From: Candidatus Woesearchaeota archaeon
GTDB taxonomy: Archaea > Nanobdellota > Nanobdellia > Pacearchaeales > UBA284
Direction of reading: 5' to 3'
Length of the DNA stretch: 61,409 bases
Assembly: GCA_964500015.1 (NCBI GenBank)
Contig: CAZCMN010000001.1
Coordinates: 1 to 61,409 of the forward strand
The position numbers and the translations under genes are program-made. Shown piece after piece: positions 4,955 to 49,543 of the stretch. The first letter of the stretch is position 1. The number at the start of each line of letters is the position of its first letter. Below the pieces are notes generated by a model. It was not told where the DNA came from. It did no database searches and saw nothing but the letters and a program-made list of their open reading frames with translations.

Positions 4955-7900
4955 TTAGAAAAACTTCTTCAATTCTTGCTGCCTTTCTGTATCTCTTCCA
5001 AACATAGTTTCTATAGCTGCCTTTGTTATCTCTAAACTTTGTTTTGTATAAGCTGGAACAGGATAATTTCTTGCTAGATTCATTGCAGCTTCAAGATATT
5101 TTAAAATCGAGCCCTCTGAAATCGTAAAAATAATCCTCCCTGCACAAAGCTGCCCATTATTCAAGACTTTAATGCATTTTCCAATCAAAGGAGGTCTTCT
5201 ATAAATTTCATTACAACTTACACATCTAAAAGATTGTTGTGTAAATTTGTTAAAATTACCCTTAATGTCTCTGATAAAATGCCTCTCAATAATCAACCTG
5301 GCAACATCTCCTATGTCTACTGCCCTTAACTTGCAGTCTAGTTCCATTTGTTTTTTTACTTTCTCGGCCATACTTGGAATTGATTTGTAAGCTGAATTCA
5401 CAACACCATAATTAAAATCATCAGTATTGTGAGTAAATCCAACATTTTCCATAGGTTCTTTTCCTTCTTTTAATCTTTTTCTAACAGTATCCAAAACAAC
5501 CTTGGAAGAATGTTCTTTTTTTTCAGCTAGCTCATACATCTCAAGGGGATAATCCCCTAATTCAAAATCTAAAATCTGGTCATCTACCTCTCTTGCCCTG
5601 ACTCTTGCATTCAAAACTAGTGGAGCATCTTGTGTCCCCCCTCTATGTGCTGGAAGAAATTCTTTTGAAAAATTAATTAAAACATCTAACAATAACATCA
5701 CTGCTACTTCATCGCCATCGCAGTCTCTACGCACAGCAGCATGAATATAAGGAGAGGCTAGTAACCCCTGAACTTTAGAAAACCCAATAATTCTGGTTAT
5801 AACCCCTGCGCAATTGTGTGGAGCCATGCAAATAGTTAAATGCCCTATCAGATCCTCTTCTTTTTTCAGATTATAAAAAGGGTTTAAACCATAAAATCTT
5901 ACAAGTAAATCATCAACAAATTTGCATGTTCTGAAAAAAACAATGTCTGCTTTCTCATCACTGGAATCTGGACAAGAAGGAAGAATAATATCCTGTGGCT
6001 TTAATTCTAAAATCTGATTATCGTTCTCAAGATTATCTCCATGAATATCTTTTTCATAACCCAAGTTTTTTAATTTTTCAATATCTGCTGAAATTTCTTT
6101 TGGTTTAAAATGAGTAATAGGCAGCTCAGTAACATCATATCTCATAGTTCCATCTTTATTTACGTTTATATTATGAGATGCTCTCAAAATTCCCTTTGCC
6201 AAGTTTTCTGGAATATGTTTGGAAGAACTTGTTCCCCTAACTCCCTTAACAATTTTCAGATTATCAGGAAGATCTAATTTTTTTATAGCATTCTTATAAT
6301 AATCTTTAATATTTATTCTCATATTTGCATAAGGCCTACATTTTCCATGAATCCTACAGCTCTCTGAAAACATTTTTTTATCACAGCCATAACAATAAAA
6401 CATTTGTTTAGCTTCTTTTCCACAATCACAGATAAAATAAACTGTCTCTTTGTTGCAATTCTCGCAAAAATAAATCGGAAAATCTGCTTTAATAGTTCCC
6501 TTATCTATAGCAGCTTGAAAACTTCTTAATTTTCCCCCTTCTTCTCCAACAGGAAATAGAACGTGTGGACTTCCAGTTAGTTCTCTTGGTTTTGCTTTTT
6601 CTGGTCTGCCCATCCTCGATCCTATAAAAGTTCCTGCTTTATCTTTAATTTTATAATTAGAAGAATTATTAAGTATTTCTAAAATATCGGGTTTAGGTTT
6701 ATCTTGAACAAAAAGTTGAACTTTTTCTAAATACTGTTTAACAGAATCTTTAAATTCCTTATCTGAAATCTCAAGAATTCCGAGATTTGCTAAAAAAGCT
6801 AGGCTTCTTTCTTTTTCCAAAACAACATTCTCAGTAGTAACCTCATGATCTATGCCTATCAGCTCTAAAGCCCTTTTTCCGATTTTATAGGTTTCTATTT
6901 CAGCCCGATTATAGGGAAAAATTATTTTTCCCCCATTATAATCTGCCTGCTTTAACCAATTGAGCAGCTCTTTAAATTGATTAAAATCAATTTGGCTCCA
7001 ATAAAAAATATGTTCTGGATGTAATGGAAGATTAAATTTTTCAGAAAACTCTTTTGCTTGTTCAAAATTTATCTTATAAGGATTTATTAAGAGAATTTCT
7101 CCAAGCTTCTCCTTAGAAGCTTTTTTTAATTCAAGATTCCACCACTCTTCAACATATCCTGGTTTTAATAATTCATAATTTCTATTTATTACATCTCCCA
7201 AAGAAAATAAAATATCCCCAAAATAGATTATTTCTTCAACATCATGATAAATCTTTTTTGCTTCTTCAAAATCTTTTATTTTTTTAACACTTCCATTTTT
7301 CAATTTGACAATTGGGCCATCAATTGAATCACAAGAAGTTATAACACATCCCTTAGTTGGTTTTTCTACTTTTAATTGAGTTCCTGTTGATAAAAAACAG
7401 TTTGAAATTCCCATTGTTGCAGGATGAATCGATGTTGCAGAAAATCCAGAAACTCTTGACCTCCCATATCTAAATCTAAAACCTCCAGATCTAGAAGGAT
7501 GTCCAAAAACCGGCCTACCTGCAACTAAATCTTTGATATATGTTGGGCTGGTATCAGTAGTTCCAGAAGTTCTTTTAGCATGAATCTTTAAATATTCCTC
7601 TAAAAAATCCCATCCAGTTGTTTTAAACCCCTTGCTCTGAACTCCTTTTAATACCCTTAATCCTTTTTGTGCTTTTTGAGCTAATCCTTCTGAAAAAATC
7701 AAACACATTCCTCCCCGAACAAAATTTGTTTCAACTCTATCTAAATCCTTATAATTTGAAACTTCTCTTTTTTCAGTTGGCTCACCAGTAATCTGAATTG
7801 GAATATTTTTTGCAAGAAATTTAATTTCTTCCTCTGTCGGAAGATATTGCAAGTTAGTAACTCTCTCATGATAATCATAATTCTCTATAAAATATCTCTT

Positions 7901-27592: not shown

Positions 27593-27634
27593 AGAAGTTT
27601 ATTATGAAGAGGTATAAAATTCTTTCGAGCGGGC

Positions 27635-28810: not shown

Positions 28811-28843
28811 TCATTTTTTCCTCAGCTTAATCTCCCCTTTCTT
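28811..28843 (-). pseudogene. relic of AbrB-fold gene 3' end (KKGEIKLRKK*)
   Basis: 27/27 nt identical to the relic at 32784..32810 and near-identical to the 3' end of the intact gene at 33763..33927. Confidence 0.55.
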
Positions 28844-28901
28844 TGATTTGGGGAATGGTGTGGGGATTGTTTAGGCATTTAAGGATTATTGTGATTTCTT
28901 T

Positions 28902-28933: not shown

Positions 28934-29329
28934 TTATATGCCCGCAGGTTTAAATGCGGCCTTAATAGCTGCGTTTATCCTATCTTCTAAAGGTTTAGTT
29001 GGTGTCCTAAATGAAAAAAGGTCTATTGCTATTGAATCTATTTCTGTGCCTCCACTATTAAAAAGCATAGAAGAGGGCGTGCTTTCAGCTCGAAGCATAA
29101 GACCAATATCTTCAGTTGACATAGCATACCCCATCTGTACATTTTGTATATGAGAAAGTGTAGGGTCGCAAAGACTAAGATAAAAAGCATTTCTTTGGAG
29201 GAAATCCATTATGGCCCCATATGCTTTATGCATGTTAGCCCCCATATCTCCTCGAGGCGCGTTGTGTTCTCTTTCCAAAGTGGATCCACGATAGATTTGA
29301 ATTCTTCCGCAATATTCTGGTGTTGGCAT
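28934..29329 (-). CDS. hypothetical protein (131 aa, GC-richer)
   Basis: ORF with promoter and leader homologous to that of 32832..33701. Confidence 0.5.
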   Translation of the reverse strand: MPTPEYCGRIQIYRGSTLEREHNAPRGDMGANMHKAYGAIMDFLQRNAFYLSLCDPTLSHIQNVQMGYAMSTEDIGLMLRAESTPSSMLFNSGGTEIDSIAIDLFSFRTPTKPLEDRINAAIKAAFKPAGI

Positions 29330-29338
29330 TTTAATTTT

Positions 29339-29400
29339 TTCAGAATAAGGTTTCTGGTACCCATCACCTCAAAAGGATATTCCCCATGGTTATTTAAAGG
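29339..29400 (-). promoter_or_regulatory. promoter and leader module shared with 33707..33769
   Basis: TATA (rc CCTTTAAATAA), then GGTGATGGGTACCAGAAACCTTATTCTGAA; 28/30 identical to the second copy; contains TGGTACCCA. Confidence 0.55.
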
Positions 29401-29978: not shown

Positions 29979-31358
29979 TTGATCATGGAAGATATTACAA
30001 AGCAAATTTCTGGTTTCGCAAAAGTAAGCCCACATGGCACATTATCTGGAATTATAAAAAAGAGATTAAACAATCAACAATCTAGGATAAGAAAGGATTA
30101 TTGGGGAGTTACAGATATTTGTAATCCATTACAAACCTATTTTAGAATAAAATATCCAGAAATATACAAAGATTCTGTAGAAACAAAGAAGAAATTTTCA
30201 TTGGGAAATAAACAACATAATATACTTCAAAAAAAGCTAGAAACAATAAATGGATTTGTAGATCGAGAAATAATCCTTGATGGAAGATTATTAGGAATTC
30301 CATTAAAAGGAAGAGCTGATGCAAAAATAGGTACTTCTATATGGGAAATAAAATCAAAAGAAGCTTTACCTAAAGATATAAGTGAATTATTAAAAAATTA
30401 TCCACAAGATATTGAACAAGTGTGTTTTTATTCTTTAATTGACCCAGAGTATCCAAAAGAAAATATCCTGATTACTACAACACACTCTAATTCAGAGGAG
30501 TGCAAGGCATATAAAATAAAAATAATGGACCTAGGAAAAATAAAAGCTCTTGCTTTAACAAGAATTGAAAAGTTAAACAAGTGGTTGGACGAAGGAAAAT
30601 TACCTTCTCTATCATTCAAATGCAGATATTGCAATGATGATTGCACAATTAAAGATGCGAAACTTTGCTCTTTTTTCGAAAACGAACCGCTATCTTGTGA
30701 AGTTGAAGATTTTATAAAAATAGAAGAAGCTCCGGAAATAGAAGAAAACTTGAAAAAGATAAGCATTTTCAAATCTGAAGCAATACCAATATTTTTATTT
30801 AACCTAATAACTCCAAGACAGTATATTCTCAAAGAATCTTGCGATTTGGAAGAAGAACCCTTTGATAATTCTTATAAAACAGAACATAAACAATTAATTC
30901 AAGATGTATTATATGAAGAAGGCAAAATCATTAACAATGAAGAATTAAAAAAGCTGAAAGAATTACAAAAAATTAAAGAATTATATCAAGGAAGAAATTC
31001 TTTTATTAAATTAGATTTAAATGGAGAAGAGAAAATATGCCCTCTTTTAATTCATATTAGCCAAAGTACATATTCTAATGCATTACAAAATGTTTCTCCT
31101 TATAAAAAAGGAGAATTGGGATTACAATGTTTAAATAATGGGGTAAATCAAGGTTATTTAATTGCATATTTTCCTGAACAAAATCACGAGGTAAGGGTTT
31201 TTGAAATCAGTTATGATTTTGAAAAAGGAACCCTAAACAAAATAAAAAAAATTGTTGAAATTCTTAAAAATAAAGATAAAGACAAATTAAATGAATTGCC
31301 AAGATGCCCAGATTTCATGTGTAAAGCTTGTGCTTATCAAAATATCTGCCCAGAATAA
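29979..31358 (+). CDS. tandem Cas4/RecB-like PD-(D/E)XK nuclease-domain protein with two Cys clusters
   Basis: domain 1: GRADAKI...IWEIKSKE plus C48 and CRYCNDDC; domain 2: degenerate core plus terminal CPDFMCKACAYQNIC (CxxCx5C). Confidence 0.65.
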   Translation: MIMEDITKQISGFAKVSPHGTLSGIIKKRLNNQQSRIRKDYWGVTDICNPLQTYFRIKYPEIYKDSVETKKKFSLGNKQHNILQKKLETINGFVDREIILDGRLLGIPLKGRADAKIGTSIWEIKSKEALPKDISELLKNYPQDIEQVCFYSLIDPEYPKENILITTTHSNSEECKAYKIKIMDLGKIKALALTRIEKLNKWLDEGKLPSLSFKCRYCNDDCTIKDAKLCSFFENEPLSCEVEDFIKIEEAPEIEENLKKISIFKSEAIPIFLFNLITPRQYILKESCDLEEEPFDNSYKTEHKQLIQDVLYEEGKIINNEELKKLKELQKIKELYQGRNSFIKLDLNGEEKICPLLIHISQSTYSNALQNVSPYKKGELGLQCLNNGVNQGYLIAYFPEQNHEVRVFEISYDFEKGTLNKIKKIVEILKNKDKDKLNELPRCPDFMCKACAYQNICPE

Positions 31359-32783: not shown

Positions 32784-32825
32784 TCATTTTTTCCTCAGCT
32801 TAATCTCCCCTCTCCTCGCCTCAAC
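32784..32825 (-). pseudogene. relic of AbrB-fold gene 3' end (VEARRGEIKLRKK*)
   Basis: begins 6 nt after the stop of 32832..33701; homologous to LEAEAKRGEIKLRKKV* of the intact copy. Confidence 0.6.
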
Positions 32826-32831
32826 TTAAAA

Positions 32832-33701
32832 TTAAAAGTCCTTTGGATTTGCCCAATCTCTTCTTTCTACAAAAGCATTTATTCTGTCATGAACAGATTT
32901 GGGAGTCCATTTCTTTACATTAGCATAACTTTTTTCAATTTTTTGGGGATCAGTTACTCCTGCAAAGAATTTTGCAGTAATTGCTCCCAATGTTCTATTT
33001 AAAAAAATAGGATTTGCTACTAGAACATAATCTTCACCAAAGTCACATATCTCTGGATGCAATAATGCAACAGCAACAAGAAAATCACTTGAAACAGCAT
33101 CTCTATCAAACATACCACTTTCATCTATAACTGCTTTTTTTAAAGACGAAAAAGTATTATATTTTTCAATTAAGCTTTTTCCTTCACTTAAACCAGGCCA
33201 ATATAATCGTCTTGTCACACAAATATCTGAAACCAATTGTGGTTCTCTTATTCCTTCAACTTGTCCTTGTGAGCAAAAATAATTTTCTTTGTCTAAAACA
33301 CCAAGTACTTGTCGTAAAGCATGATTCTTTTGATTTCTATTCAGTAAAGGATAAACAGATCCCACAGCATTCCATAATTCAATTGGAATCGCTTCATACG
33401 GACCACCAGCAATAGCAGTAATCCACTCATTTTTTCCATAAGCCTTCTCCAAGCTATCATGATATTTTTCAAAAATCATTCCAATAGCTCTGTCTGGGTC
33501 TTTTCTTAATACATGAACAAAAGGTTCAATGTCAGTAAGTGCTACAAGATGGTGTTTATCTGTTTCTGTTTCTATTCCTCTGACAACTTCTTGCGCTATT
33601 CTTTCAGATCTAGACTCTACAGATTCTTGTTGCAAGTTATCAATTAGTTGATCTATAGTTTCTGGAACTGCAAATGGTTTTGCTAGTTTTTTTCTTTCCA
33701 T
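32832..33701 (-). CDS. hypothetical protein (289 aa, GC-richer), downstream partner of the AbrB-fold gene
   Basis: ORF; its promoter TATA overlaps the stop of the AbrB-fold gene. Confidence 0.55.
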   Translation of the reverse strand: MERKKLAKPFAVPETIDQLIDNLQQESVESRSERIAQEVVRGIETETDKHHLVALTDIEPFVHVLRKDPDRAIGMIFEKYHDSLEKAYGKNEWITAIAGGPYEAIPIELWNAVGSVYPLLNRNQKNHALRQVLGVLDKENYFCSQGQVEGIREPQLVSDICVTRRLYWPGLSEGKSLIEKYNTFSSLKKAVIDESGMFDRDAVSSDFLVAVALLHPEICDFGEDYVLVANPIFLNRTLGAITAKFFAGVTDPQKIEKSYANVKKWTPKSVHDRINAFVERRDWANPKDF

Positions 33702-33706
33702 AATAA

Positions 33707-33769
33707 TTCAGAATAAGGTTTCTGGTGACCATCACCACAAAAAACAGACCTGATTAGGATATTTAAACC
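33707..33769 (-). promoter_or_regulatory. promoter and leader module (second copy)
   Basis: TATA (rc GGTTTAAATAT), then GGTGATGGTCACCAGAAACCTTATTCTGAA. Confidence 0.55.
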
Positions 33770-33927
33770 TTTTTCCTCAGCTTAATTTCCCCTCTCTTCG
33801 CTTCCGCCTCAAGCTCGTCTCCTTCTTTGAAACCTGATTCATTTATGAAACCTTCAGGAATAACTACAACGAATTTATGATAAATCTTACTTTGTTTTTT
33901 ATCCGATACTTGTTTTTGAAGCTTCAT
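33763..33927 (-). CDS. AbrB/MazE/SpoVT-fold DNA-binding protein (54 aa; own translation MKLQKQVSDKKQSKIYHKFVVVIPEGFINESGFKEGDELEAEAKRGEIKLRKKV)
   Basis: below the ORF-track cutoff; canonical swapped-hairpin signature V.IP......G.KEGDEL......G.I.L. Confidence 0.7.
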   Translation of the reverse strand: MKLQKQVSDKKQSKIYHKFVVVIPEGFINESGFKEGDELEAEAKRGEIKLRKKV

Positions 33928-33961
33928 ATATATTACAACTTACAGAGATATTTAAGCATTT

Positions 33962-34023
33962 TGGTACCCACCACTTTAAAGTTAATAATTGGGTACCCAA
34001 ATATTTATAAGTCTGGGTACCCA
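33962..34023. promoter_or_regulatory. three palindromic TGGGTACCCA-type sites (candidate operators) in the divergent promoter region
   Basis: TGGTACCCA 33962-33970, TTGGGTACCCAA 33989-34000, TGGGTACCCA 34014-34023; first site abuts the TATA (rc GCTTAAATATC) of the AbrB-fold gene. Confidence 0.5.
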
Positions 34024-34032
34024 AGAAAATGC

Positions 34033-34143
34033 ATGGAAGTTTGTTATGATTGGGAGATGCTTGGTTTAGGTATGTTTGTGATGCTGGTTATATATTTTAT
34101 AATCCATGTAGTTTGGGGGATGATAAAGAATAAAAGTATTTAA
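34033..34143 (+). CDS. possible 36-aa single-TM peptide (MEVCYDWEMLGLGMFVMLVIYFIIHVVWGMIKNKSI)
   Basis: internal ATG of track ORF 33877..34143, about 22 nt downstream of ATATTTATAAG; divergent from the AbrB-fold gene. Confidence 0.25.
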   Translation: MEVCYDWEMLGLGMFVMLVIYFIIHVVWGMIKNKSI

Positions 34144-34155
34144 AAAATGGGAAAA

Positions 34156-34563
34156 TTAATCAAAAAATTTTGTCCAAAATAAATACCCCCATGCAAGAAT
34201 CATGCCTAAAACTAAAAAAACCATCTGAACCAAAGAACCAGCATTACAAGATAAAACAAATTGCCACCAAATTTCAAATAATAAGATAATTAGACTACTA
34301 AAAATCAAATAGAAATAACTAATCTTTTTGGAAGGCCAGTAAAGTTTTCCACAAGATAAATACTCTCCTAATGCCTGGCCTACATAGGCCAAAGAGAATA
34401 AAACTAGGGGGGCATAAAATCCAGTAAAAAAATGTTCTATGAATATTCTAGCTCCAAAATTAAAAGGCAATCCTGCCTGTCTATTCAAGGCAAGTAATGC
34501 CCCAAAAATTGTTAAAATAATAAGAACAAAAAGAGTAATTATGACCTTAATTTCTTTTTTCAT
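34156..34563 (-). CDS. 4-TM membrane protein (135 aa), last gene of the xseAB-DUF2075 operon
   Basis: four hydrophobic helices; 17-nt overlap with the upstream ORF. Confidence 0.55.
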   Translation of the reverse strand: MKKEIKVIITLFVLIILTIFGALLALNRQAGLPFNFGARIFIEHFFTGFYAPLVLFSLAYVGQALGEYLSCGKLYWPSKKISYFYLIFSSLIILLFEIWWQFVLSCNAGSLVQMVFLVLGMILAWGYLFWTKFFD

Positions 34564-35188
34564 TTTTTTTATTAATCCATCCTCTCAATAGTTGGACGTC
34601 TTTCTCCTCTTCTTTTTCGATTTTTGAAAAATCATGTTCTTTACTATAAAAATTAAAGAAAACATAAAAGAAAATAATAATTAATGTTGTACAGGTCAGG
34701 TAAAAATACAAATTCCCTTTAAATAAAATAAAGAGAATAGACAGAAATGAAGCAAATAATGAAAAAATGATTAGAGCGCTTGACTTTTTAATTAATTTAC
34801 TCTCCCCCTTCATCGAGGTCCAAGTAAGTTTTTCTAATTTTTTTAAAACAGCAATTGTTTTTATTTCAAAATTTTCAGTTTCTAAATCCCCTAACAACTC
34901 TTGGTCTAATTTAAACCAATGAACTGCAGGCATATCAACCGCAAAATATTTTAGTAATATTACAATTGAAATAATTTGGGGGATTATTGGAAGTAATATT
35001 AAAATATTACTAAAAAGATTAGTAGAATAAAGCGTAATAGATAATATTGGTAAAAATGTTGAAATAAGCAATAGAAAATCTATCTTCCCTTTAGCTTTTC
35101 TTTCTCTAACATCGTACATGTGCTGATAAGAACTCCAGAATAGAGGGAGATTTTCCTTTAATCTCTTAATTTTTTCATTTCGATTCAT
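34547..35188 (-). CDS. 4-TM membrane protein (213 aa) with cytosolic N-terminal helix and charged tail
   Basis: TM hairpin, about 55-aa soluble insert, second TM hairpin; start overlaps the DUF2075 stop (TAATG). Confidence 0.55.
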   Translation of the reverse strand: MNRNEKIKRLKENLPLFWSSYQHMYDVRERKAKGKIDFLLLISTFLPILSITLYSTNLFSNILILLPIIPQIISIVILLKYFAVDMPAVHWFKLDQELLGDLETENFEIKTIAVLKKLEKLTWTSMKGESKLIKKSSALIIFSLFASFLSILFILFKGNLYFYLTCTTLIIIFFYVFFNFYSKEHDFSKIEKEEEKDVQLLRGWINKKNEKRN

Positions 35189-37053
35189 TATTTTACACTT
35201 TCCTCAACAATTTTACTTCTAAAATAATTCTCAGTATCTTTATCAATGAAATAAACATAAACCCCTTTATGTGCTCGAGATAATAAAACTCGGTAAACAT
35301 TTTTTAGGTGTTTTAATAGTTCTTTATTATCTCTCTTTACTTCGGTATCATAAGAGTTCTCGGGTTTGGCTTCCCAACTTCCTTTTTCTTTATTATAGGC
35401 TAGATCTTTTCCAAAAATCACCCCAATATAATCAAATTCAAATCCCTGGGCTGTGTAAACGGTTCCAACTTGTTGCATCCCAGAGTCATCTGTTGCCCAC
35501 TTCCAAAATTCATCCTTTTTCTCCCAAGGCATTTCAAATGTTCCAATTTTAATATCATTCACCAGAGTTCCATCCATTTTAGGAGCACTCCAAGGCCAGC
35601 AAAAGCCAGTAACGATTCTAGCGCAGTTTTTCTTTTGCTTATTCTTTTCATCTATAGTTTTTCTTAATTCATTTGGATCAGAGAGAATGTTGAATTCCAT
35701 TTTTTCATCTTTTTGAAGAAGAAGGTCATTTTTTTCTTTTATTTCTAACACATCTTCTAGCCATTGAAGATAAGAATCAGACCCCCCACACCTAAATTGT
35801 GTTTTTAATTCATATTCAAATATGCTCCTTTCTTGAACTCCCAACTTTTCAGCAGTTTCCCTTATTAATTTTATATTTCCTATTTCTTTTGGTCTTACAA
35901 TCTGATGTTCATCAATAAAGAAAATTAAAAGTTGGGCAGCTTTGATCAATTCTTCAATTTGTGGAACTTCTGTTCTTTGAACTTTTGGTGTATATCTGCT
36001 TTCGCTAGTTTTCCTTATTCTATGTGCCTCATCACAAATTAATACCTCTATTTCATTTTCCTTGTGGTTTGCAAAACTATTGAAAAATTTAAAGAAACTA
36101 GAAGATCGAGTGCCCAAGACTTTTCTTAACGTATTTGTAAATGCTGAAGAACCAGTGGCATGATAAACCTTCTTCCCATTTCTTAGTAATTCACCCATAA
36201 CCTCCAATGCAATAACAGACTTTCCCGTTCCTGGTCCGCCTTTAACAATTATTATTGATTTTTCACTAAGTTTAGAAAGTTTTTTTGCTTTGTGCATTAT
36301 TGTGTTGTATGGGGTTATTTGCTCATCAATTAAGTTAAAAATTTGTTGTTTGTGAATCATATCTCTTGTATGGTCCAGCAATCTTTTAGAAGGTCTTAGT
36401 ATGCTATGTGTAAATCTGCCGAAAACTTCTAAACCGTCTCCTTTATTTAGTCTTTCTTTAAAATAATTCCCTAATTCTTTTATATCCTCTCGAGAAAATA
36501 AGGGATATTTCTCAATTGCTTTATGAAATTTAGTTGAATAAAGAACTTCTTTTTCACCCTTTTTATAATTATGGCAATATGCGCATGCACTAAGAAATAT
36601 TTTTGGAGTTTCTTCAAAGACACCCATAAAATCTTTAAGATAGTAATAATAACCCTCTACTTGTAGAGAAGGATGTGGTGTTTCTTGAAATCTGCCAAAC
36701 TTAACCAAAACATTACCTTCATTTTCAGAATCTTTGACATTATTATTAGACCATTGCTTTAATTCTATAACAACTATATTATCTGAACCACCATTATCAA
36801 CACCAAAAAGAATAACATCAATTCTTTTTGCAGAATAGGGCAATTCATATTCAATAATTATTTTATTCTTAAGCAATTTAGATTCTTCTAAAACATCTTT
36901 TAAGACTCTTAAAGAATTATCCCATGACCTAAACTCGGATTTATTAACGGATTTTTTGTAATATTCTCTGAATTTATCTGCTATTTTTTCAGCAATAGAA
37001 TTATTTACAATATCTTTTTTGAATTCTTGGACTGTTCCTTCGTATAGTCTCAT
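35188..37053 (-). CDS. DUF2075-type protein: N-terminal PD-(D/E)XK-like nuclease module plus SF1-helicase-like P-loop ATPase
   Basis: RIDVILFG...VVIELKQW (D..ExK), Walker A GGPGTGKS, Walker B LICDEAHR, YTAQGFEFDYIGVIFG, LLSRAHKGVYVY. Confidence 0.85.
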   Translation of the reverse strand: MRLYEGTVQEFKKDIVNNSIAEKIADKFREYYKKSVNKSEFRSWDNSLRVLKDVLEESKLLKNKIIIEYELPYSAKRIDVILFGVDNGGSDNIVVIELKQWSNNNVKDSENEGNVLVKFGRFQETPHPSLQVEGYYYYLKDFMGVFEETPKIFLSACAYCHNYKKGEKEVLYSTKFHKAIEKYPLFSREDIKELGNYFKERLNKGDGLEVFGRFTHSILRPSKRLLDHTRDMIHKQQIFNLIDEQITPYNTIMHKAKKLSKLSEKSIIIVKGGPGTGKSVIALEVMGELLRNGKKVYHATGSSAFTNTLRKVLGTRSSSFFKFFNSFANHKENEIEVLICDEAHRIRKTSESRYTPKVQRTEVPQIEELIKAAQLLIFFIDEHQIVRPKEIGNIKLIRETAEKLGVQERSIFEYELKTQFRCGGSDSYLQWLEDVLEIKEKNDLLLQKDEKMEFNILSDPNELRKTIDEKNKQKKNCARIVTGFCWPWSAPKMDGTLVNDIKIGTFEMPWEKKDEFWKWATDDSGMQQVGTVYTAQGFEFDYIGVIFGKDLAYNKEKGSWEAKPENSYDTEVKRDNKELLKHLKNVYRVLLSRAHKGVYVYFIDKDTENYFRSKIVEESVK

Positions 37054-37073
37054 TTTTAATTAAACTTCGCTTT

Positions 37074-37289
37074 TCAACCAAATTTTTCAAATTTGATCTT
37101 TCCATCTTTATTAACAATCTTCTGTATACTCATTTCGGCTTCCTTGAGTTCTTTGTCACAAAATTTTAGTAATTCTGCCCCTTCTTTGAATCTTTCTATC
37201 TTTCCTTTTAATGGAAGACCTTCCTCTTCAAGCGAAGATGCAATCTCCTCTATCCTTTCCAATGCTTCTTCAAAAGATTTCTTTTTCAT
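37074..37289 (-). CDS. xseB: exodeoxyribonuclease VII small subunit
   Basis: FEEALERIEEI...LEE..LPL...ERFKEGAELLKFC...L.EAE pattern; overlaps the xseA 3' end by 20 nt. Confidence 0.85.
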   Translation of the reverse strand: MKKKSFEEALERIEEIASSLEEEGLPLKGKIERFKEGAELLKFCDKELKEAEMSIQKIVNKDGKIKFEKFG

Positions 37290-38493
37290 TTTTGTTTTTT
37301 ATTGTTGAACATATTTCTCCATCTTTAACAATTGTAGATATGGTGTCGCCGGACTTTATATTCTTTATGCTTGAAATAACTTTACCTTCTTTTATGGTTA
37401 TGCTATACCCTCTCTTTAATACAGAAAAAGGGCTTAATGCATCTAATTTTTCAGTTGATCCTTTTAATTTTATTTTCAAAATTCTGATATTATCTCTCGA
37501 TATCTTTATAAGATTAAGACTCATTTCATCTAATCGTTGTTTAGTTTCTTCTATCAAACTCATTGGTCTTCTGAAAAAGGATCTATCTTTGACATTACTA
37601 ACTTGTTTTTTGTAGGATCGAAGGGTATTTTTAAGTTCCATACACAATCTATTTTGCAAATTATCAAGTGAATCATAAATTTCTATTTCATTAGGCACTA
37701 CAAGTTCGGAAGCAACCGAAGGGGTTGGCGCTCTTTTATCAGCTACAAAATCGGCAATGGTGTAATCGGTTTCATGGCCTATTGCTGAAACTATGGGGAT
37801 TTTTGAATTAAATATCTCTCTTGCAACAATTTCTTCGTTGAAAGGCCATAAATCTTCAAAAGAACCACCTCCTCTTGCAACAATTATAACATCCACAAAT
37901 AACTGGTTCAGTATTCTTATACCTTGGGTTATCCCATATTTTGCATCATCACCCTGAACTGCTGAAGGGAAAATTACAAGTTTAATATGGGGGTATCTCC
38001 TTTTTACAACCTTAATGATGTCATGAATTACAGATCCTTCTGTAGATGTAACAACACCAATAATCTGGGGATATTTGGGAATTGGCCTTTTATGTTCTTC
38101 TTTGAAAAGCCCTTCTTTTTCTAATTTCGCTTTTATTTGTAAGAATTTAAGATATAATTCGCCCTTCCCCGCTAAATGCATCTCTTCAATAATTATCTGA
38201 TAGGTTCCTCTCGGTTTGTAAACTTCCAAACTTCCCCTAATAAGTACTTTCATGCCATCTTCTGGAATGAATTCCAGGTATTGGTTTGCTCTTTGAAACA
38301 TAGCACAACCAAGTATCGAACTTTCATCTTTTAAATTGAAGTACATATGGGCCTTACTAGAATTTCTAAAATTTGATATCTCGCCTTTGATCCATATATT
38401 CTGAAGATTCTCATTTTGTTCTATCAAATTTTTAATACAAATAGTTATTTCATCAACAGAATAAACTTTTGTTTCTGGTTTGATTTCTACCAT
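37270..38493 (-). CDS. xseA: exodeoxyribonuclease VII large subunit
   Basis: N-terminal OB (GEISNF...HMYFNLKD), VQG, ARGGGSFEDLWPFNEE, SAIGHETDYTIADFVADKRAPTPS. Confidence 0.9.
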   Translation of the reverse strand: MVEIKPETKVYSVDEITICIKNLIEQNENLQNIWIKGEISNFRNSSKAHMYFNLKDESSILGCAMFQRANQYLEFIPEDGMKVLIRGSLEVYKPRGTYQIIIEEMHLAGKGELYLKFLQIKAKLEKEGLFKEEHKRPIPKYPQIIGVVTSTEGSVIHDIIKVVKRRYPHIKLVIFPSAVQGDDAKYGITQGIRILNQLFVDVIIVARGGGSFEDLWPFNEEIVAREIFNSKIPIVSAIGHETDYTIADFVADKRAPTPSVASELVVPNEIEIYDSLDNLQNRLCMELKNTLRSYKKQVSNVKDRSFFRRPMSLIEETKQRLDEMSLNLIKISRDNIRILKIKLKGSTEKLDALSPFSVLKRGYSITIKEGKVISSIKNIKSGDTISTIVKDGEICSTIKNKNEKEIF

Positions 38494-38510: not shown

Positions 38511-38530
38511 GAATATAAAATCCTTTCTAT
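38511..38530 (-). promoter_or_regulatory. BRE/TATA promoter of xseA (rc ATAGAAAGGATTTTATATTC)
   Basis: about 20 nt upstream of the ATG; same GAAAGG-TTTTATA pattern recurs upstream of many minus-strand genes. Confidence 0.55.
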
Positions 38531-38610: not shown

Positions 38611-39135
38611 TTAGTATTCTCTTCGTTGGATAAGACCTAATTTTAATTTATAATTAAATATTTCTCTATAATAATCTTCCCCTTTATTCTTTCTCCAAAA
38701 TTCAGACATTTTTTTTCTGTATTCATTCCATGTTCTATCTTCCTTATGTAAAAATTCATGATCCCCCACAAACATTACTTTCAAATTTTCTCTTCTATTA
38801 TCTTTATGATTAAAATTAATATGGTGGACTTCTACTTCAGAAAGTTCACAATTATTCTTTTCACAAAATTCAGAAATTTTTTCTGAAATTAAAAATCTAT
38901 GGTATGCTACTTTAAATGGCTCTATTTTTATAAGAAGATATCCTGTCTCACTTATATAATATTTATCTTGATACTTAAATTTTCTTTTAAAAAGCTCATA
39001 ATCATCATTATCAAAAATATAATCCTCTTTTCCCCGTATTGAAACAGAAATTGATTTATTTTTTTCAAAATCTTCTTCATTCTTCAAAAGTTTTCGAGTA
39101 ATAAATCTTCCTTCAGAATCAAATTCCATAACCAT
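38611..39135 (-). CDS. HNH endonuclease-domain protein (174 aa)
   Basis: EVHHINFNHKDNRRENLKVM...HEFLH. Confidence 0.75.
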   Translation of the reverse strand: MVMEFDSEGRFITRKLLKNEEDFEKNKSISVSIRGKEDYIFDNDDYELFKRKFKYQDKYYISETGYLLIKIEPFKVAYHRFLISEKISEFCEKNNCELSEVEVHHINFNHKDNRRENLKVMFVGDHEFLHKEDRTWNEYRKKMSEFWRKNKGEDYYREIFNYKLKLGLIQRREY

Positions 39136-39137
39136 GT

Positions 39138-39800
39138 TTATTCTTCCCCCACATTCTCACACCACTCACACCCCTTCTTCGGACACTCCCCATTCAACAA
39201 CTCTAGGGCATCTTTCCAAACTTTCTCAACAATCTTGATATTAACTTCCATCTTAATAAGATTTGTATTGAACAGAACTTCTCCTGTCTCTAAAACTTCT
39301 TTTGGATGATAAAATAACAGGAAGAAATGGTCACCTGTTTCGTAGCCATTTTTTCGCAATAAAAAATTGTAAATATTCTGTTGTAATCTATAATGCTCTG
39401 CAGTATCTTCTTTTAATGGAAAACCTCTTGTCTTGTAATCTAAAACAATTAACTTTTTTCCATCAACTAAAATATTATCAACTGCTCCATGAAGTTCATT
39501 TCCTTGTTCATCTTTCCAGGAAATTCCTTTAAAATTGCTTCTCCAAACTTTTAACAGAGACTTATTACTGAATAACTTCATATGTTTGCAATGAACATGA
39601 TCTCTTATTTCTGGAGGTAAAATTCCTTGTTCCATAAATTTATCAAAATGTTTCTTTAGAATTCCATCCATGCCATTTGGAAGGCTTGGAAATATGCCTG
39701 CTGGCCTTTTCCAGACATTATGTTGGGTAAGCCAGAAACATCTTGGGCATTCTTTCATGAGATTCAGGCTTGAAGGTGATAATTTGAATGTTTGTGTCAT
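39138..39800 (-). CDS. Cas4-like PD-(D/E)XK nuclease with four-Cys cluster
   Basis: CPRC at the N-terminus, GAVDNI...LIVLDYKTRG, YRLQQNIYNFLL (QxxxY), C-terminal CPKKGCEWC. Confidence 0.75.
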   Translation of the reverse strand: MTQTFKLSPSSLNLMKECPRCFWLTQHNVWKRPAGIFPSLPNGMDGILKKHFDKFMEQGILPPEIRDHVHCKHMKLFSNKSLLKVWRSNFKGISWKDEQGNELHGAVDNILVDGKKLIVLDYKTRGFPLKEDTAEHYRLQQNIYNFLLRKNGYETGDHFFLLFYHPKEVLETGEVLFNTNLIKMEVNIKIVEKVWKDALELLNGECPKKGCEWCENVGEE

Positions 39801-41482
39801 TTTAAATGTTTTTTTACTCTTTCTGGGATTGGAATATTATATTTTTTTAATAATTCTACACCCTGAATATAACTTAACCATTTATGATTCTTATAATGAA
39901 TTTCATCATGAATATTTTTATCAATTTTTATTAGGTTGTAATAATCGTTATTCCTTCTATCTCCATCTATATGATGTACATTAAATAAGTTAGTGTATAC
40001 TCTTTCTTGAGAATTTTTTTCATACCACCATACATGGAATGATTTATTTTTATCCCAAGAACAAATTTCATATCCATCTTGATTAAGCAAAACTTTAATC
40101 CGCTGTTTATTCAAAAAAGGTTGAGTCATTAATTTTTTTGTTTTTTCTATTTCGAGTTCTATTTTAGATCTATCTTCATTTGCTTCTTTAAGCTTTTTAT
40201 TATTTTCTTCTATCAAGATATCGATCTTTTGTTTGTCAATCATAAACTCGTTATGTAATTCTTCAGCACGTTGGTTATACCTCATTCTTATTTTATCAAT
40301 CTCTTTATCAAGTGCCTTTTTTGCCTCAAGATTAGCATTTTTTTTCTTTTCATGAATTTTTTTTATTTCAGTTTGTTCTTTCTCTTTTAAATTTGATAGA
40401 CCTTTATCAAATTCTTCTTTTTTGTTTAAATAATTTTTTTCTAATTTTATAATTTCTTTTTTTGATTTATTAATAGAATTCTTCAAAGATTGTTTTTCTT
40501 TTCTTAAATTATCTATAACTTTTTCTTCATTTTGTCGTTTGTGCTCTGCGTCTTTCGTTTTTCCTTCTTCTTCTTTTCTTTTATAAACTGCAAAATACCA
40601 AACACCTATTGAAACTATCAAGATAATTGCACCAATTATAATCAAATAAGCCCACCATGACGGAGGTTTTGGTTTACAATTATTATTTTTCCCAATTCCA
40701 TATTTACATTCTGTTTCACAAAAATAAGGTTCGTTTACTTTACTTCCAGAGATATCACAACAAAGATTATTTTTAGTTAGTTGAGACTTGCACTCCCATT
40801 CACACATATATGGCTCTCTAACTTCTTTAGTGGAGGGTTTTAGGCAGATTGCATCGTTGCAATTTTTTAAACCATCGGGGCATGGAACCGGATCTTCATG
40901 TCCACAAAAACCCGCTATGTTACAAATTTGTGAACCACATTTTTCATCATCAGAAAGAGGGTTACAAACTGCACCATCATCTAAACATTGTTGGTTTTCA
41001 CATATCATACAAACATCTCTGGATTTAGTAACCATTTCATTTTTTAAAGTAATTATTTTTGGATCAGTAATTACATATTTTATGCTTGCAGGGTCAATTT
41101 GACCATTCCCCAAGTCCGGGCAAGTTGCAGTTATAGGGTCGGAGTAAGAATACTGACTAACTGAAACAACAGTTTGATATTCTCGTTTAGATGAACCAAA
41201 AGCATTGCCCCAAGTGAGAGAATAGCTTAAATTTAGCGTTATATCTTCATTTAGTGGATTATAAACTTTGAAAGAAGCGTAACTACACCCTTCAATATTC
41301 ATCATACCTCCAGAAAAATTGGTAAATTCCAAAGGAACACCAAAATAAGCCCCCCTAGAAGTATAAAGCCCAAGTTCTAATTCTTGATAAGATTCCTTTT
41401 CAGTATATTGGCATGCGTTAACAAAAGAAATAGCTAAAATTAAGAATAAGAAACAAAACAATATCTTGGTTAATTTCTTCAT
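39797..41482 (-). CDS. membrane-anchored HNH protein: signal peptide, Cys-rich ectodomain, TM, coiled coil, cytoplasmic HNH
   Basis: MKKLTKILFCFLFLILAISFVNA; more than 25 Cys in the ectodomain; TM WWAYLIIIGAIILIVSIGVWYFAVY; K/E-rich heptads; NVHHIDGDRRNNDYYNL...HDEIH. Confidence 0.65.
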   Translation of the reverse strand: MKKLTKILFCFLFLILAISFVNACQYTEKESYQELELGLYTSRGAYFGVPLEFTNFSGGMMNIEGCSYASFKVYNPLNEDITLNLSYSLTWGNAFGSSKREYQTVVSVSQYSYSDPITATCPDLGNGQIDPASIKYVITDPKIITLKNEMVTKSRDVCMICENQQCLDDGAVCNPLSDDEKCGSQICNIAGFCGHEDPVPCPDGLKNCNDAICLKPSTKEVREPYMCEWECKSQLTKNNLCCDISGSKVNEPYFCETECKYGIGKNNNCKPKPPSWWAYLIIIGAIILIVSIGVWYFAVYKRKEEEGKTKDAEHKRQNEEKVIDNLRKEKQSLKNSINKSKKEIIKLEKNYLNKKEEFDKGLSNLKEKEQTEIKKIHEKKKNANLEAKKALDKEIDKIRMRYNQRAEELHNEFMIDKQKIDILIEENNKKLKEANEDRSKIELEIEKTKKLMTQPFLNKQRIKVLLNQDGYEICSWDKNKSFHVWWYEKNSQERVYTNLFNVHHIDGDRRNNDYYNLIKIDKNIHDEIHYKNHKWLSYIQGVELLKKYNIPIPERVKKHLK

Positions 41483-41490
41483 GAAATCTC

Positions 41491-41516
41491 TAGAGAGAAG
41501 AGATATAAAAGAGTTT
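41491..41516 (-). promoter_or_regulatory. TATA promoter (rc AAACTCTTTTATATCTCTTCTCTCTA), 24/26 identical to 42816..42841
   Basis: read directly; about 20 nt upstream of the ATG at 41482. Confidence 0.55.
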
Positions 41517-41530
41517 TGGTTAAAGAAAAT

Positions 41531-42815: not shown

Positions 42816-42841
42816 TAGAGAAGAGAGATATAAAAGAGTTT
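42816..42841 (-). promoter_or_regulatory. TATA promoter (rc AAACTCTTTTATATCTCTCTTCTCTA), twin of 41491..41516
   Basis: read directly. Confidence 0.55.
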
Positions 42842-49475: not shown

Positions 49476-49543
49476 ATATCTCTAATTCTTTTTAATATAA
49501 AAGAGTTTCTATCAGCATGTGTAATAAAATACTAGGGATTATT

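Follow-up and report, generated by a model that had tools for sequence, protein, structure and literature searches.

The exodeoxyribonuclease VII genes of a DPANN archaeon are probably followed by a patchwork of defence- and toxin-type cassettes

On the minus strand of contig CAZCMN010000001.1 (assembly GCA_964500015.1, Candidatus Woesearchaeota archaeon), five open reading frames (ORFs) occupy positions 34156-38493 of the 61,409-nucleotide (nt) stretch analysed here, which we call the window. They encode the large and small subunits of exodeoxyribonuclease VII (ExoVII; xseA and xseB), a 621-residue DUF2075 nuclease-helicase and two small membrane proteins, TM213 (213 residues) and TM135 (135 residues). 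A first-pass annotation, made from the sequence alone, had proposed that the five genes form a composite defence or DNA-surveillance module. We think it more probable, at roughly 60%, that the array is a patchwork at a variable cassette site beside a conserved ExoVII anchor, with replacement of alleles, and not a co-evolved system. We base this on the observation that DUF2075 alleles, orientations and junctions all differ from locus to locus, and that the neighbouring genes are of toxin-antitoxin, mobile and defence types. The evidence points to an ordinary arrangement, a site collecting defence and toxin cassettes next to a core gene, rather than to a new multi-enzyme system of DPANN archaea.

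The window is part of a metagenome and has a GC content of 30%. It has the character of a DPANN-type archaeal chromosome segment, encoding both polymerase D subunits (PolD DP1 and DP2), Orc1/Cdc6 and Lhr. The nearest genome is a metagenome-assembled genome (MAG) of Pacearchaeota; taxonomic labels of MAG bins may mislead for short contigs. The five ORFs are densely packed with no real intergenic gaps, and our coordinates and junctions reproduce exactly those of the first-pass annotation. xseA (37270-38493) and xseB (37074-37289) overlap by 20 nt, a gap of 20 nt separates xseB from the 621-residue ORF (35188-37053), a TAATG stop/start overlap at 35186-35190 joins the latter to the TM213 ORF (34547-35188), and the TM213 and TM135 (34156-34563) ORFs overlap by 17 nt.

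A BRE/TATA promoter-like motif, GAAAGGATTTTATAT, is located at 38513-38527 (minus strand), about 20-34 nt 5' of the xseA ATG. It is an instance of the motif GAAAnnnTTTTATAT, which several further genes of the window also carry some 20-30 nt 5' of their ATG (copies at 27612, 42154, 42828, 48220 and 49495). No internal copy of this motif is present on the coding strand of 34156-38493, where DNA of 30% GC may still harbour weak promoters, and separate internal promoters for the DUF2075, TM213 or TM135 genes were rejected for want of such a copy. On the sense strand the first run of six T residues occurs only within the TM213 gene, and another lies at 34142-34147 (minus strand), 9 nt beyond the TM135 stop codon. 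The latter might be an archaeal terminator at which the array ends, but it is weak evidence for one because T-runs are common in DNA of 30% GC. The five genes may plausibly constitute one transcription unit read from the xseA promoter, because one recurrent promoter-like motif lies upstream of the array and none within it; the single promoter suggested in the first-pass annotation is thus supported, and the co-expression of all five genes is plausible. Searches of the window for tRNA genes and Rfam families gave zero matches.

Both ExoVII subunits were correctly identified in the first-pass annotation, each matching its full-length equivalog model well above the cut-off. The intact 407-residue xseA product scores 470.9 bits against TIGR00237 (cut-off 180; E = 3.6e-141) and the 71-residue xseB product scores 58.2 bits against TIGR01280 (cut-off 35; E = 6.4e-16). 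Pfam assigns to XseA an N-terminal oligonucleotide-binding (OB) fold (tRNA_anti_2) followed by the catalytic domain (Exonuc_VII_L), and its translation contains ARGGGS and GHETD, corresponding to the catalytic motifs RGGG and GHExD of E. coli XseA. ExoVII had been considered uncommon in archaea, but this does not apply to the DPANN lineage, where we found many xseA homologues of 55-71% identity. Most of these are on metagenome contigs, and the handful whose source is named carry the label archaeon or Nanoarchaeota. The 20-nt overlap of xseA and xseB is also present in three related loci (L088-L090) and measures 29 nt in a fourth (L087). Because homologues are many and the overlap is kept in relatives, we regard ExoVII as a normal resident of the lineage and not as an exotic acquisition. 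Judged by its sequence, xseAB is an ordinary, intact, lineage-typical housekeeping pair, common in the DPANN clade, and by analogy it would have the usual role of ExoVII as a single-stranded DNA (ssDNA) exonuclease. The pair is peculiar only in what follows it downstream.

The downstream flank of xseB was compared in four loci with close xseA homologues (67-70% identity), L087-L090. L087 has xseA, xseB and a DUF2075 gene on one strand, without the gene for a MazG-like protein that usually precedes DUF2075 genes elsewhere (see below). The DUF2075 protein of L087 is 52% identical to that of the window, and its C-terminus is the final 20-residue stretch of an AbrB-like protein (...EGEELEVEVKKGEIKLRKK). 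This junction is a fusion scar and therefore indicates an insertion. In L088, a MazG-DUF2075 pair (42% identity for DUF2075) is convergent on xseB, with one gene in between. L090 contains xseAB without a MazG-like or DUF2075 gene, and L089 ends too early to tell. A fifth locus, L077 (xseA identity, 59%), has a remnant of an AbrB tail directly after xseB, then three unannotated genes and then a TM213 homologue, 2.6 kb downstream of xseAB. In L013, a DUF2075 gene, an AbrB-like gene, RadC and xseAB follow one another within 7.7 kb. The genes surrounding xseAB and DUF2075 in these relatives include HEPN, MNT, Y1 transposase, integrase, RNase H and AbrB genes, all of toxin-antitoxin, mobile or defence type.

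In the window, the cassette block is bounded by a 54-residue AbrB/MazE-like gene (33763-33927, minus strand; PF04014, E = 3.9e-7), and non-coding remnants of an AbrB 3' end (...GEIKLRKK) are found at 32787-32822 and 28814-28849. The recurring AbrB 3' end, as seen in these sequences, may be a cassette junction or a recombination scar. Its sites include 33763-33804 in the window, 8364-8432 in L087, 2396-2446 in L077 and approximately 1019-1180 in L072; an AbrB tail is also fused to the TM213 homologue P0015, and in L072 and L086 TM213 comes after an AbrB-like gene that is intact. The window further contains a 36-nt element with a GGTACC/GGTGACC palindrome in two copies (29339-29374 and 33707-33742; 92% identical), situated just upstream of two unrelated ORFs of 131 and 289 residues (28934-29329 and 32832-33701). 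Additional copies of GGGTACC are found around 33960-34020, upstream of the AbrB-like gene. The 36-nt element could be an AbrB-type operator or part of a duplicated cassette leader. Together, the AbrB 3'-end copies and the duplicated element are consistent with repeated cassette recombination. As in defence islands and other hotspots of variable cassettes, a conserved anchor, here xseAB, is accompanied by defence, toxin-antitoxin and mobile genes that vary from relative to relative, the replacement of alleles extends over a single gene and junction scars recur; the difference is that the site in the window has no identified integrase or attachment (att) site.

A probable case of allele replacement is the DUF2075 gene of the window itself. 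Using blastn and tblastx, we found that positions 35197-37058 (minus strand) are 87.5% identical in nucleotide sequence to positions 5416-7278 of a locus on the Pacearchaeota contig JAPLYB010000015 (L002). The homology block begins 5 nt before the DUF2075 ATG and ends approximately 10 nt before the TM213 start codon, and the rest of the 13-kb L002 shows no resemblance to the 61-kb window except for one 55-nt promoter-like stretch. Since the homology ends with the gene, and L002 shows no xseAB in its 13 kb, swapping of alleles is indicated, and the sequence comparison suggests that the DUF2075 gene arrived, or was replaced, as an exact gene-sized piece. Alignment of the 3' junction reveals a 1-nt indel relative to L002. 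The resulting frameshift adds six codons to the DUF2075 ORF and so gives rise to its TAATG overlap with TM213. Because the overlap stems from this indel, any translational coupling of the two genes would be recent and incidental. In a distance tree the window allele groups with that of L002 inside a DPANN clade, and those of L087 and L088 branch off outside the entire group of bacterial and archaeal sequences, so that the three DUF2075 alleles adjacent to xseAB represent three separate branches.

The 621-residue protein (35188-37053, minus strand) appears to be a nuclease-helicase of the Nhi/AbiO type. It matches the Pfam model PF09848 (SLFN-g3_helicase/DUF2075) over all 354 positions (1-354) with an E-value of 1.4e-86, and there is a weak NERD match at the N-terminus (6.4e-4). 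PADLOC returned the candidate family PDC-S41 (6.3e-24) and a partial match to AbiO (1.4e-14) that covers the helicase part alone (residues 240-474); there was no model named Nhi among the PADLOC matches. The motif RID(79)...E(96)LK(98)QW, the Walker A motif GGPGTGKS and the Walker B motif DEAHR are at least 90% conserved in 50 orthologues. The PD-(D/E)XK-like N-terminus and the superfamily 1 (SF1) P-loop ATPase described in the first-pass annotation are therefore well founded, and the defence flavour it ascribed to the protein is upheld by the PADLOC matches and the domain architecture. Sequence searches did not relate the protein to any solved structure.

Nhi, Nhi-like and AbiO are published single-protein antiphage systems that combine a PD-(D/E)XK nuclease with a DUF2075 SF1 helicase. 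The 621-residue protein shares with Nhi of S. epidermidis (SERP2475), Nhi-like (Millman et al. 2022) and lactococcal AbiO an N-terminal PD-(D/E)XK domain and a DUF2075/SLFN group-3 SF1 helicase; the earlier statement that the array could be matched to no named system was wrong in respect of this protein. A further likeness is that its relatives adjoin restriction-modification (R-M) genes on plasmids. We consider it a Nhi/AbiO-like enzyme of defence type, for which antiviral activity is predicted by analogy. It differs from Nhi and AbiO in belonging to an unusually conserved group of orthologues, with 47-93% protein identity across bacteria and archaea. Scanning one genome per species, we collected 52 loci, to which two found later were added to make 54. 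The hosts include Woesearchaeota, Pacearchaeota, Micrarchaeota, Bathyarchaeia, Omnitrophota, Saccharibacteria, Acidobacteriota and Nitrospirota, among others; one acidobacterial locus lies on a closed 5.4-Mb chromosome.

A second difference from Nhi and AbiO is that the orthologues normally reside in a two-gene cassette, of which the window has only one half. Directly upstream of the DUF2075 gene and on the same strand, 42 of 51 informative loci carry a gene for a MazG-like protein of about 120 residues (PF12643, 3.8e-19). The gap between the two genes is smaller than 100 nt in all but one of these 42 loci, and typically 0-6 nt; the 42 comprise L002 (positions 5050-7271) and 41 further loci among L003-L053 and L088. 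No MazG-like sequence is present anywhere in the window (best tblastn E = 3.1). Twelve loci have RadC near DUF2075, ten of them on its upstream side, and ten have an SRA-HNH nuclease, which is downstream in seven cases; on a Priestia plasmid the MazG-DUF2075 pair adjoins a type I R-M system. The cassette thus spans bacterial and archaeal phyla and is often flanked by RadC, SRA-HNH or Cas4-like nucleases; we did not find a description of it in the literature searched. These features suggest that a nucleotide pyrophosphohydrolase is a common partner of Nhi-like enzymes, and the pair possibly acts against viruses with modified nucleotides. A viral origin of the array genes was also considered and rejected: IMG/VR scans for xseA, TM213 and the DUF2075 protein gave no matches, and GenBank phages yielded only four distant DUF2075 matches of 25-36% identity.

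We picture the origin of the array as follows. In this DPANN clade, a vertically inherited xseA-xseB pair would have a variable 3' flank that collects mobile cassettes of defence and toxin type. The DUF2075 gene would have come in, or been exchanged, as a piece with precisely the bounds of the gene, losing the MazG-like partner that it usually has. By analogy with Nhi, the enzyme it encodes probably works on its own to unwind and degrade DNA that is foreign or being replicated. Co-expression of the five genes would then probably reflect read-through, resulting from insertion and the recent 1-nt indel, and not selection for joint function. Some points weigh against this proposal. The comparison of xseB flanks covers a small sample, four close xseA homologues. 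Neither a recombinase nor an att-like site was identified that could mark out a hotspot, for which the AbrB 3'-end scars are the sole candidate. And DUF2075 is found beside xseAB in two of three informative close relatives, and within 4.4 kb of it in L013, which is more than expected at random and may reflect function.

The last point could mean that ExoVII and the DUF2075 enzyme are a genuine functional pair in one DPANN subclade, with ExoVII digesting the ssDNA produced by the helicase-nuclease and replacing the MazG-like partner. The same-strand order xseA-xseB-DUF2075 occurs both in the window and in L087, in each case without a MazG-like gene; the DUF2075 gene is one gene away from xseB in L088, and L013 has both within 4.4 kb. 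That the adjacent alleles are phylogenetically distinct could even be taken as a sign of repeated selection. However, xseAB is found within 6 kb of DUF2075 in only three of the 54 loci, leaving 51 without it, and orientation and spacing are different every time: L088 is convergent and retains its MazG-like gene. DUF2075 is missing from the xseAB loci L090 and L077, the AbrB fusion in L087 speaks for insertion, and the gene-bounded homology with L002 for an allele swap. On balance a functional pair appears unlikely to us.

TM213 (34547-35188, minus strand) belongs to a small unannotated family of proteins with four transmembrane (TM) helices. Hydropathy analysis places its hydrophobic segments at residues 36-54, 61-79, 138-156 and 160-178, and the AlphaFold2 model is all-helical, with a mean pLDDT of 78.8. 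We found 20 close homologues in a database of 5.8 billion sequences, and a set of 1.84 billion proteins contains 82 cluster representatives of the family, almost all of which are stand-alone proteins of about 200-230 residues. The family shares an N-terminal motif, LPLFWxSYQHMYDxRER. TM213 has no match in Pfam, PADLOC or NCBIfam; a profile search of the PDB returned only designed coiled coils, and Foldseek found nothing in the PDB below E = 0.5. Pfam scans of 21 and 61 family members gave sub-threshold, membrane-like noise (DUF2207_C, 8xMP, NapE and DUF4231). An internal duplication, with helix and hairpin occurring twice, is not supported by hhalign comparison of the N- and C-terminal halves (probability, 16%).

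The first-pass annotation had noted a topology reminiscent of SLATT effectors, but kinship could not be shown by Pfam, PDB profile or Foldseek searches. TM213 does share with the SLATT effectors of 2TM type a helix plus TM hairpin and an occurrence in conflict loci. It differs in that no SLATT model matched and that SMODS, cyclase, LOG or other nucleotide-signalling genes were seen neither in the neighbourhood in the window nor in the annotated contexts of TM213 homologues. Three of the 61 members gave sub-threshold matches to DUF4231 on the TM hairpin (best E = 1.1e-3); DUF4231 is a SLATT-related family. We therefore rejected membership of TM213 in the SLATT group.

The genomic contexts of TM213 homologues are more informative. 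In all six individual look-ups hsdM precedes the homologue, either immediately or with a few small genes in between; hsdS is the very next gene in five of them, and in the sixth the contig ends beyond an unassigned 228-residue ORF. Start/stop overlaps are common in these operons, and hsdR is nearby. Combining the look-ups with metagenome loci and tblastn searches for hsdM, hsdS and hsdR, we placed the family within type I R-M systems in 10 of 14 informative contexts. Examples are found at 6001-6645 in L054, 6001-6708 in L056, 6001-6633 in L059, 2914-3546 in L061, 6001-6675 in L063, 3558-4100 in L065 and 5001-5621 in L068. The four contexts outside R-M systems are the window, where tblastn detected no hsdM, hsdS or remnants of either in the 61 kb, L077, L072 and L074. 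The L072 homologue directly follows an AbrB-like gene and stands beside an orphan methyltransferase. The L074 homologue (1139-1780) is next to MCM and is split by an in-frame stop codon into pieces of 95 and 117 residues; it is either a pseudogene or an assembly error. On its other side is a 211-residue ORF that we read by eye as OB-fold/RPA-like. The small genes that accompany TM213 in R-M operons mostly encode membrane proteins; kinship among these companions, or between them and TM135, was looked for and rejected (none at E<1e-3).

Because it is embedded in type I R-M operons elsewhere, TM213 can be linked to defence loci. Two R-M-associated systems offer a comparison. The effector of Ronin, RonA, has 61 residues and one TM helix and is encoded in tight linkage with hsdS and hsdM; it is described as toxic alone, suppressed by HsdMS and released by anti-restriction proteins. 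The EcoPrrI type I R-M complex keeps PrrC inactive until a block of restriction sets it free. The likeness of the TM213 family to Ronin and PrrC/EcoPrrI is one of gene position, a small membrane protein inside an hsdM-...-hsdS operon, and similarity in sequence is not to be expected. TM213 has about 210 residues and four TM helices, compared to the 61 residues and single helix of RonA; the R-M loci bearing it keep hsdR, which most Ronin loci do not; and the family comes from DPANN-type archaeal contigs, with the copy in the window lacking any R-M partner. By analogy, TM213 may act as an effector or toxin that damages membranes and is ordinarily curbed by HsdMS or an AbrB-type partner. Within type I R-M operons it would plausibly serve as a back-up effector that the R-M complex controls, much as in Ronin or PrrC, which makes this four-helix family inside complete DPANN type I R-M operons a candidate archaeal analogue of R-M-guarding cell-death effectors.

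One could go further and regard TM213 as defining a new family, membrane proteins of four helices that would serve DPANN archaea as portable 'suicide' or guard effectors and plug into HsdMS in most genomes or, as here, into a Nhi-type enzyme. If this were true, TM213 would be an archaeal counterpart of Ronin/PrrC-style decoy immunity, and DUF2075-TM213(-TM135) behind xseAB would be a working sensor-effector unit. We rate this analogy-based proposal as rather unlikely.

Similarly unlikely in our view is the related idea of a new sensor-effector pair for abortive infection made up of the DUF2075 enzyme and TM213, possibly joined by TM135, with TM213 as a portable membrane 'suicide' module. Its attraction is that TM213 is consistently operonic with DNA-targeting defence enzymes, with start/stop overlaps in the R-M operons and an overlap with the DUF2075 stop codon in the window, that it often has unrelated small membrane companions, such as TM135 here, and that Ronin provides a precedent. 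However, the 54 DUF2075 loci and 14 TM213 contexts show a single instance of the pairing, the stop/start overlap is a product of the recent 1-nt indel, and TM213 is also found with an AbrB-like gene alone (L072) or, as an interrupted ORF, beside MCM (L074). The first-pass annotation had raised the question of whether DUF2075 and the two TM genes co-occur in related genomes; none of the 54 DUF2075 loci has a TM213 or TM135 homologue beside it.

TM135 (34156-34563, minus strand) is a near-orphan. It has no match in Pfam, NCBIfam or PADLOC, and its single detectable homologue (52% identity) lies in an unrelated neighbourhood containing a ParE toxin, an ASCH and an MBL-fold gene. Three hydrophobic segments are above threshold. 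The description of both distal products as 4-TM proteins thus holds for TM213, and for TM135 a fourth segment, near residues 41-65, was read by eye only. Likewise, the suggestion that both are defence-related membrane effectors gains from the R-M association in the case of TM213, and finds no counterpart in a family match for TM135. TM135 resembles the R-M companions of TM213 in kind, not in sequence. On the patchwork interpretation that we favour, TM213 would sit in the window without an R-M partner, and TM135 would be a third item of the flank, an orphan small membrane protein.

That all five genes constitute one undescribed defence or DNA-surveillance system, as first proposed on account of the tight junctions, the one promoter-like motif and two components of defence flavour, is close to refuted because the neighbourhood is not conserved: among 54 DUF2075 loci, 14 TM213 contexts and five xseA contexts there is no second five-gene instance nor any four-gene instance, no other locus combines more than xseAB and one other gene of the array, xseAB is a lineage-wide housekeeping pair and TM135 is an orphan. 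What deserves to be followed up are the R-M-embedded 4-TM family and the MazG-like-DUF2075 cassette.

Upstream of the array, positions 39138-39800 (minus strand) encode a 220-residue Cas4-like PD-(D/E)XK nuclease (PF12705, 9.7e-10; PADLOC Cas4, 7e-8). Its homologues are located at most 3.5 kb from DUF2075 in L004, L008, L014, L032 and L044, and about 4.3 kb upstream of it in L087. It is a solo Cas4-like nuclease with cysteine motifs at both the N- and the C-terminus. In two loci the Cas4-like gene is directly upstream of the MazG-like gene, and one of the six Cas4-bearing loci is a Patescibacteria contig. The Cas4-like gene of the window is flanked by two genes for HNH-motif proteins (38611-39135 and 39797-41482). 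One of these proteins, of 561 residues, has an unusual membrane-anchored architecture, comprising a signal or TM segment, a cysteine-rich N-terminal half, a second TM helix, a K/E-rich coiled-coil-like region and a C-terminal HNH motif; its family match is limited to a weak one to HNH_3.

A near-identical promoter/leader block, GAAACTCTTTTATATCTCTCTTCTCT, stands before unrelated genes at 41491-41516, 42816-42841 and 49495-49509 in the window and at 3783-3836 in L002. One copy, the 55 nt at 41475-41529 of the window, is 87% identical to its counterpart in the otherwise unrelated L002. Finally, a 459-residue ORF at 29979-31358 gave two weak PADLOC matches to Cas4 (1.6e-5 and 2.3e-4) and has a terminal cysteine cluster, CPDFMCKACAYQNICPE, and no Pfam match. 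It lies within the stretch from about 29 to 34 kb of the window, in which the GC skew changes sign and orphan ORFs cluster, and which may be another inserted element.

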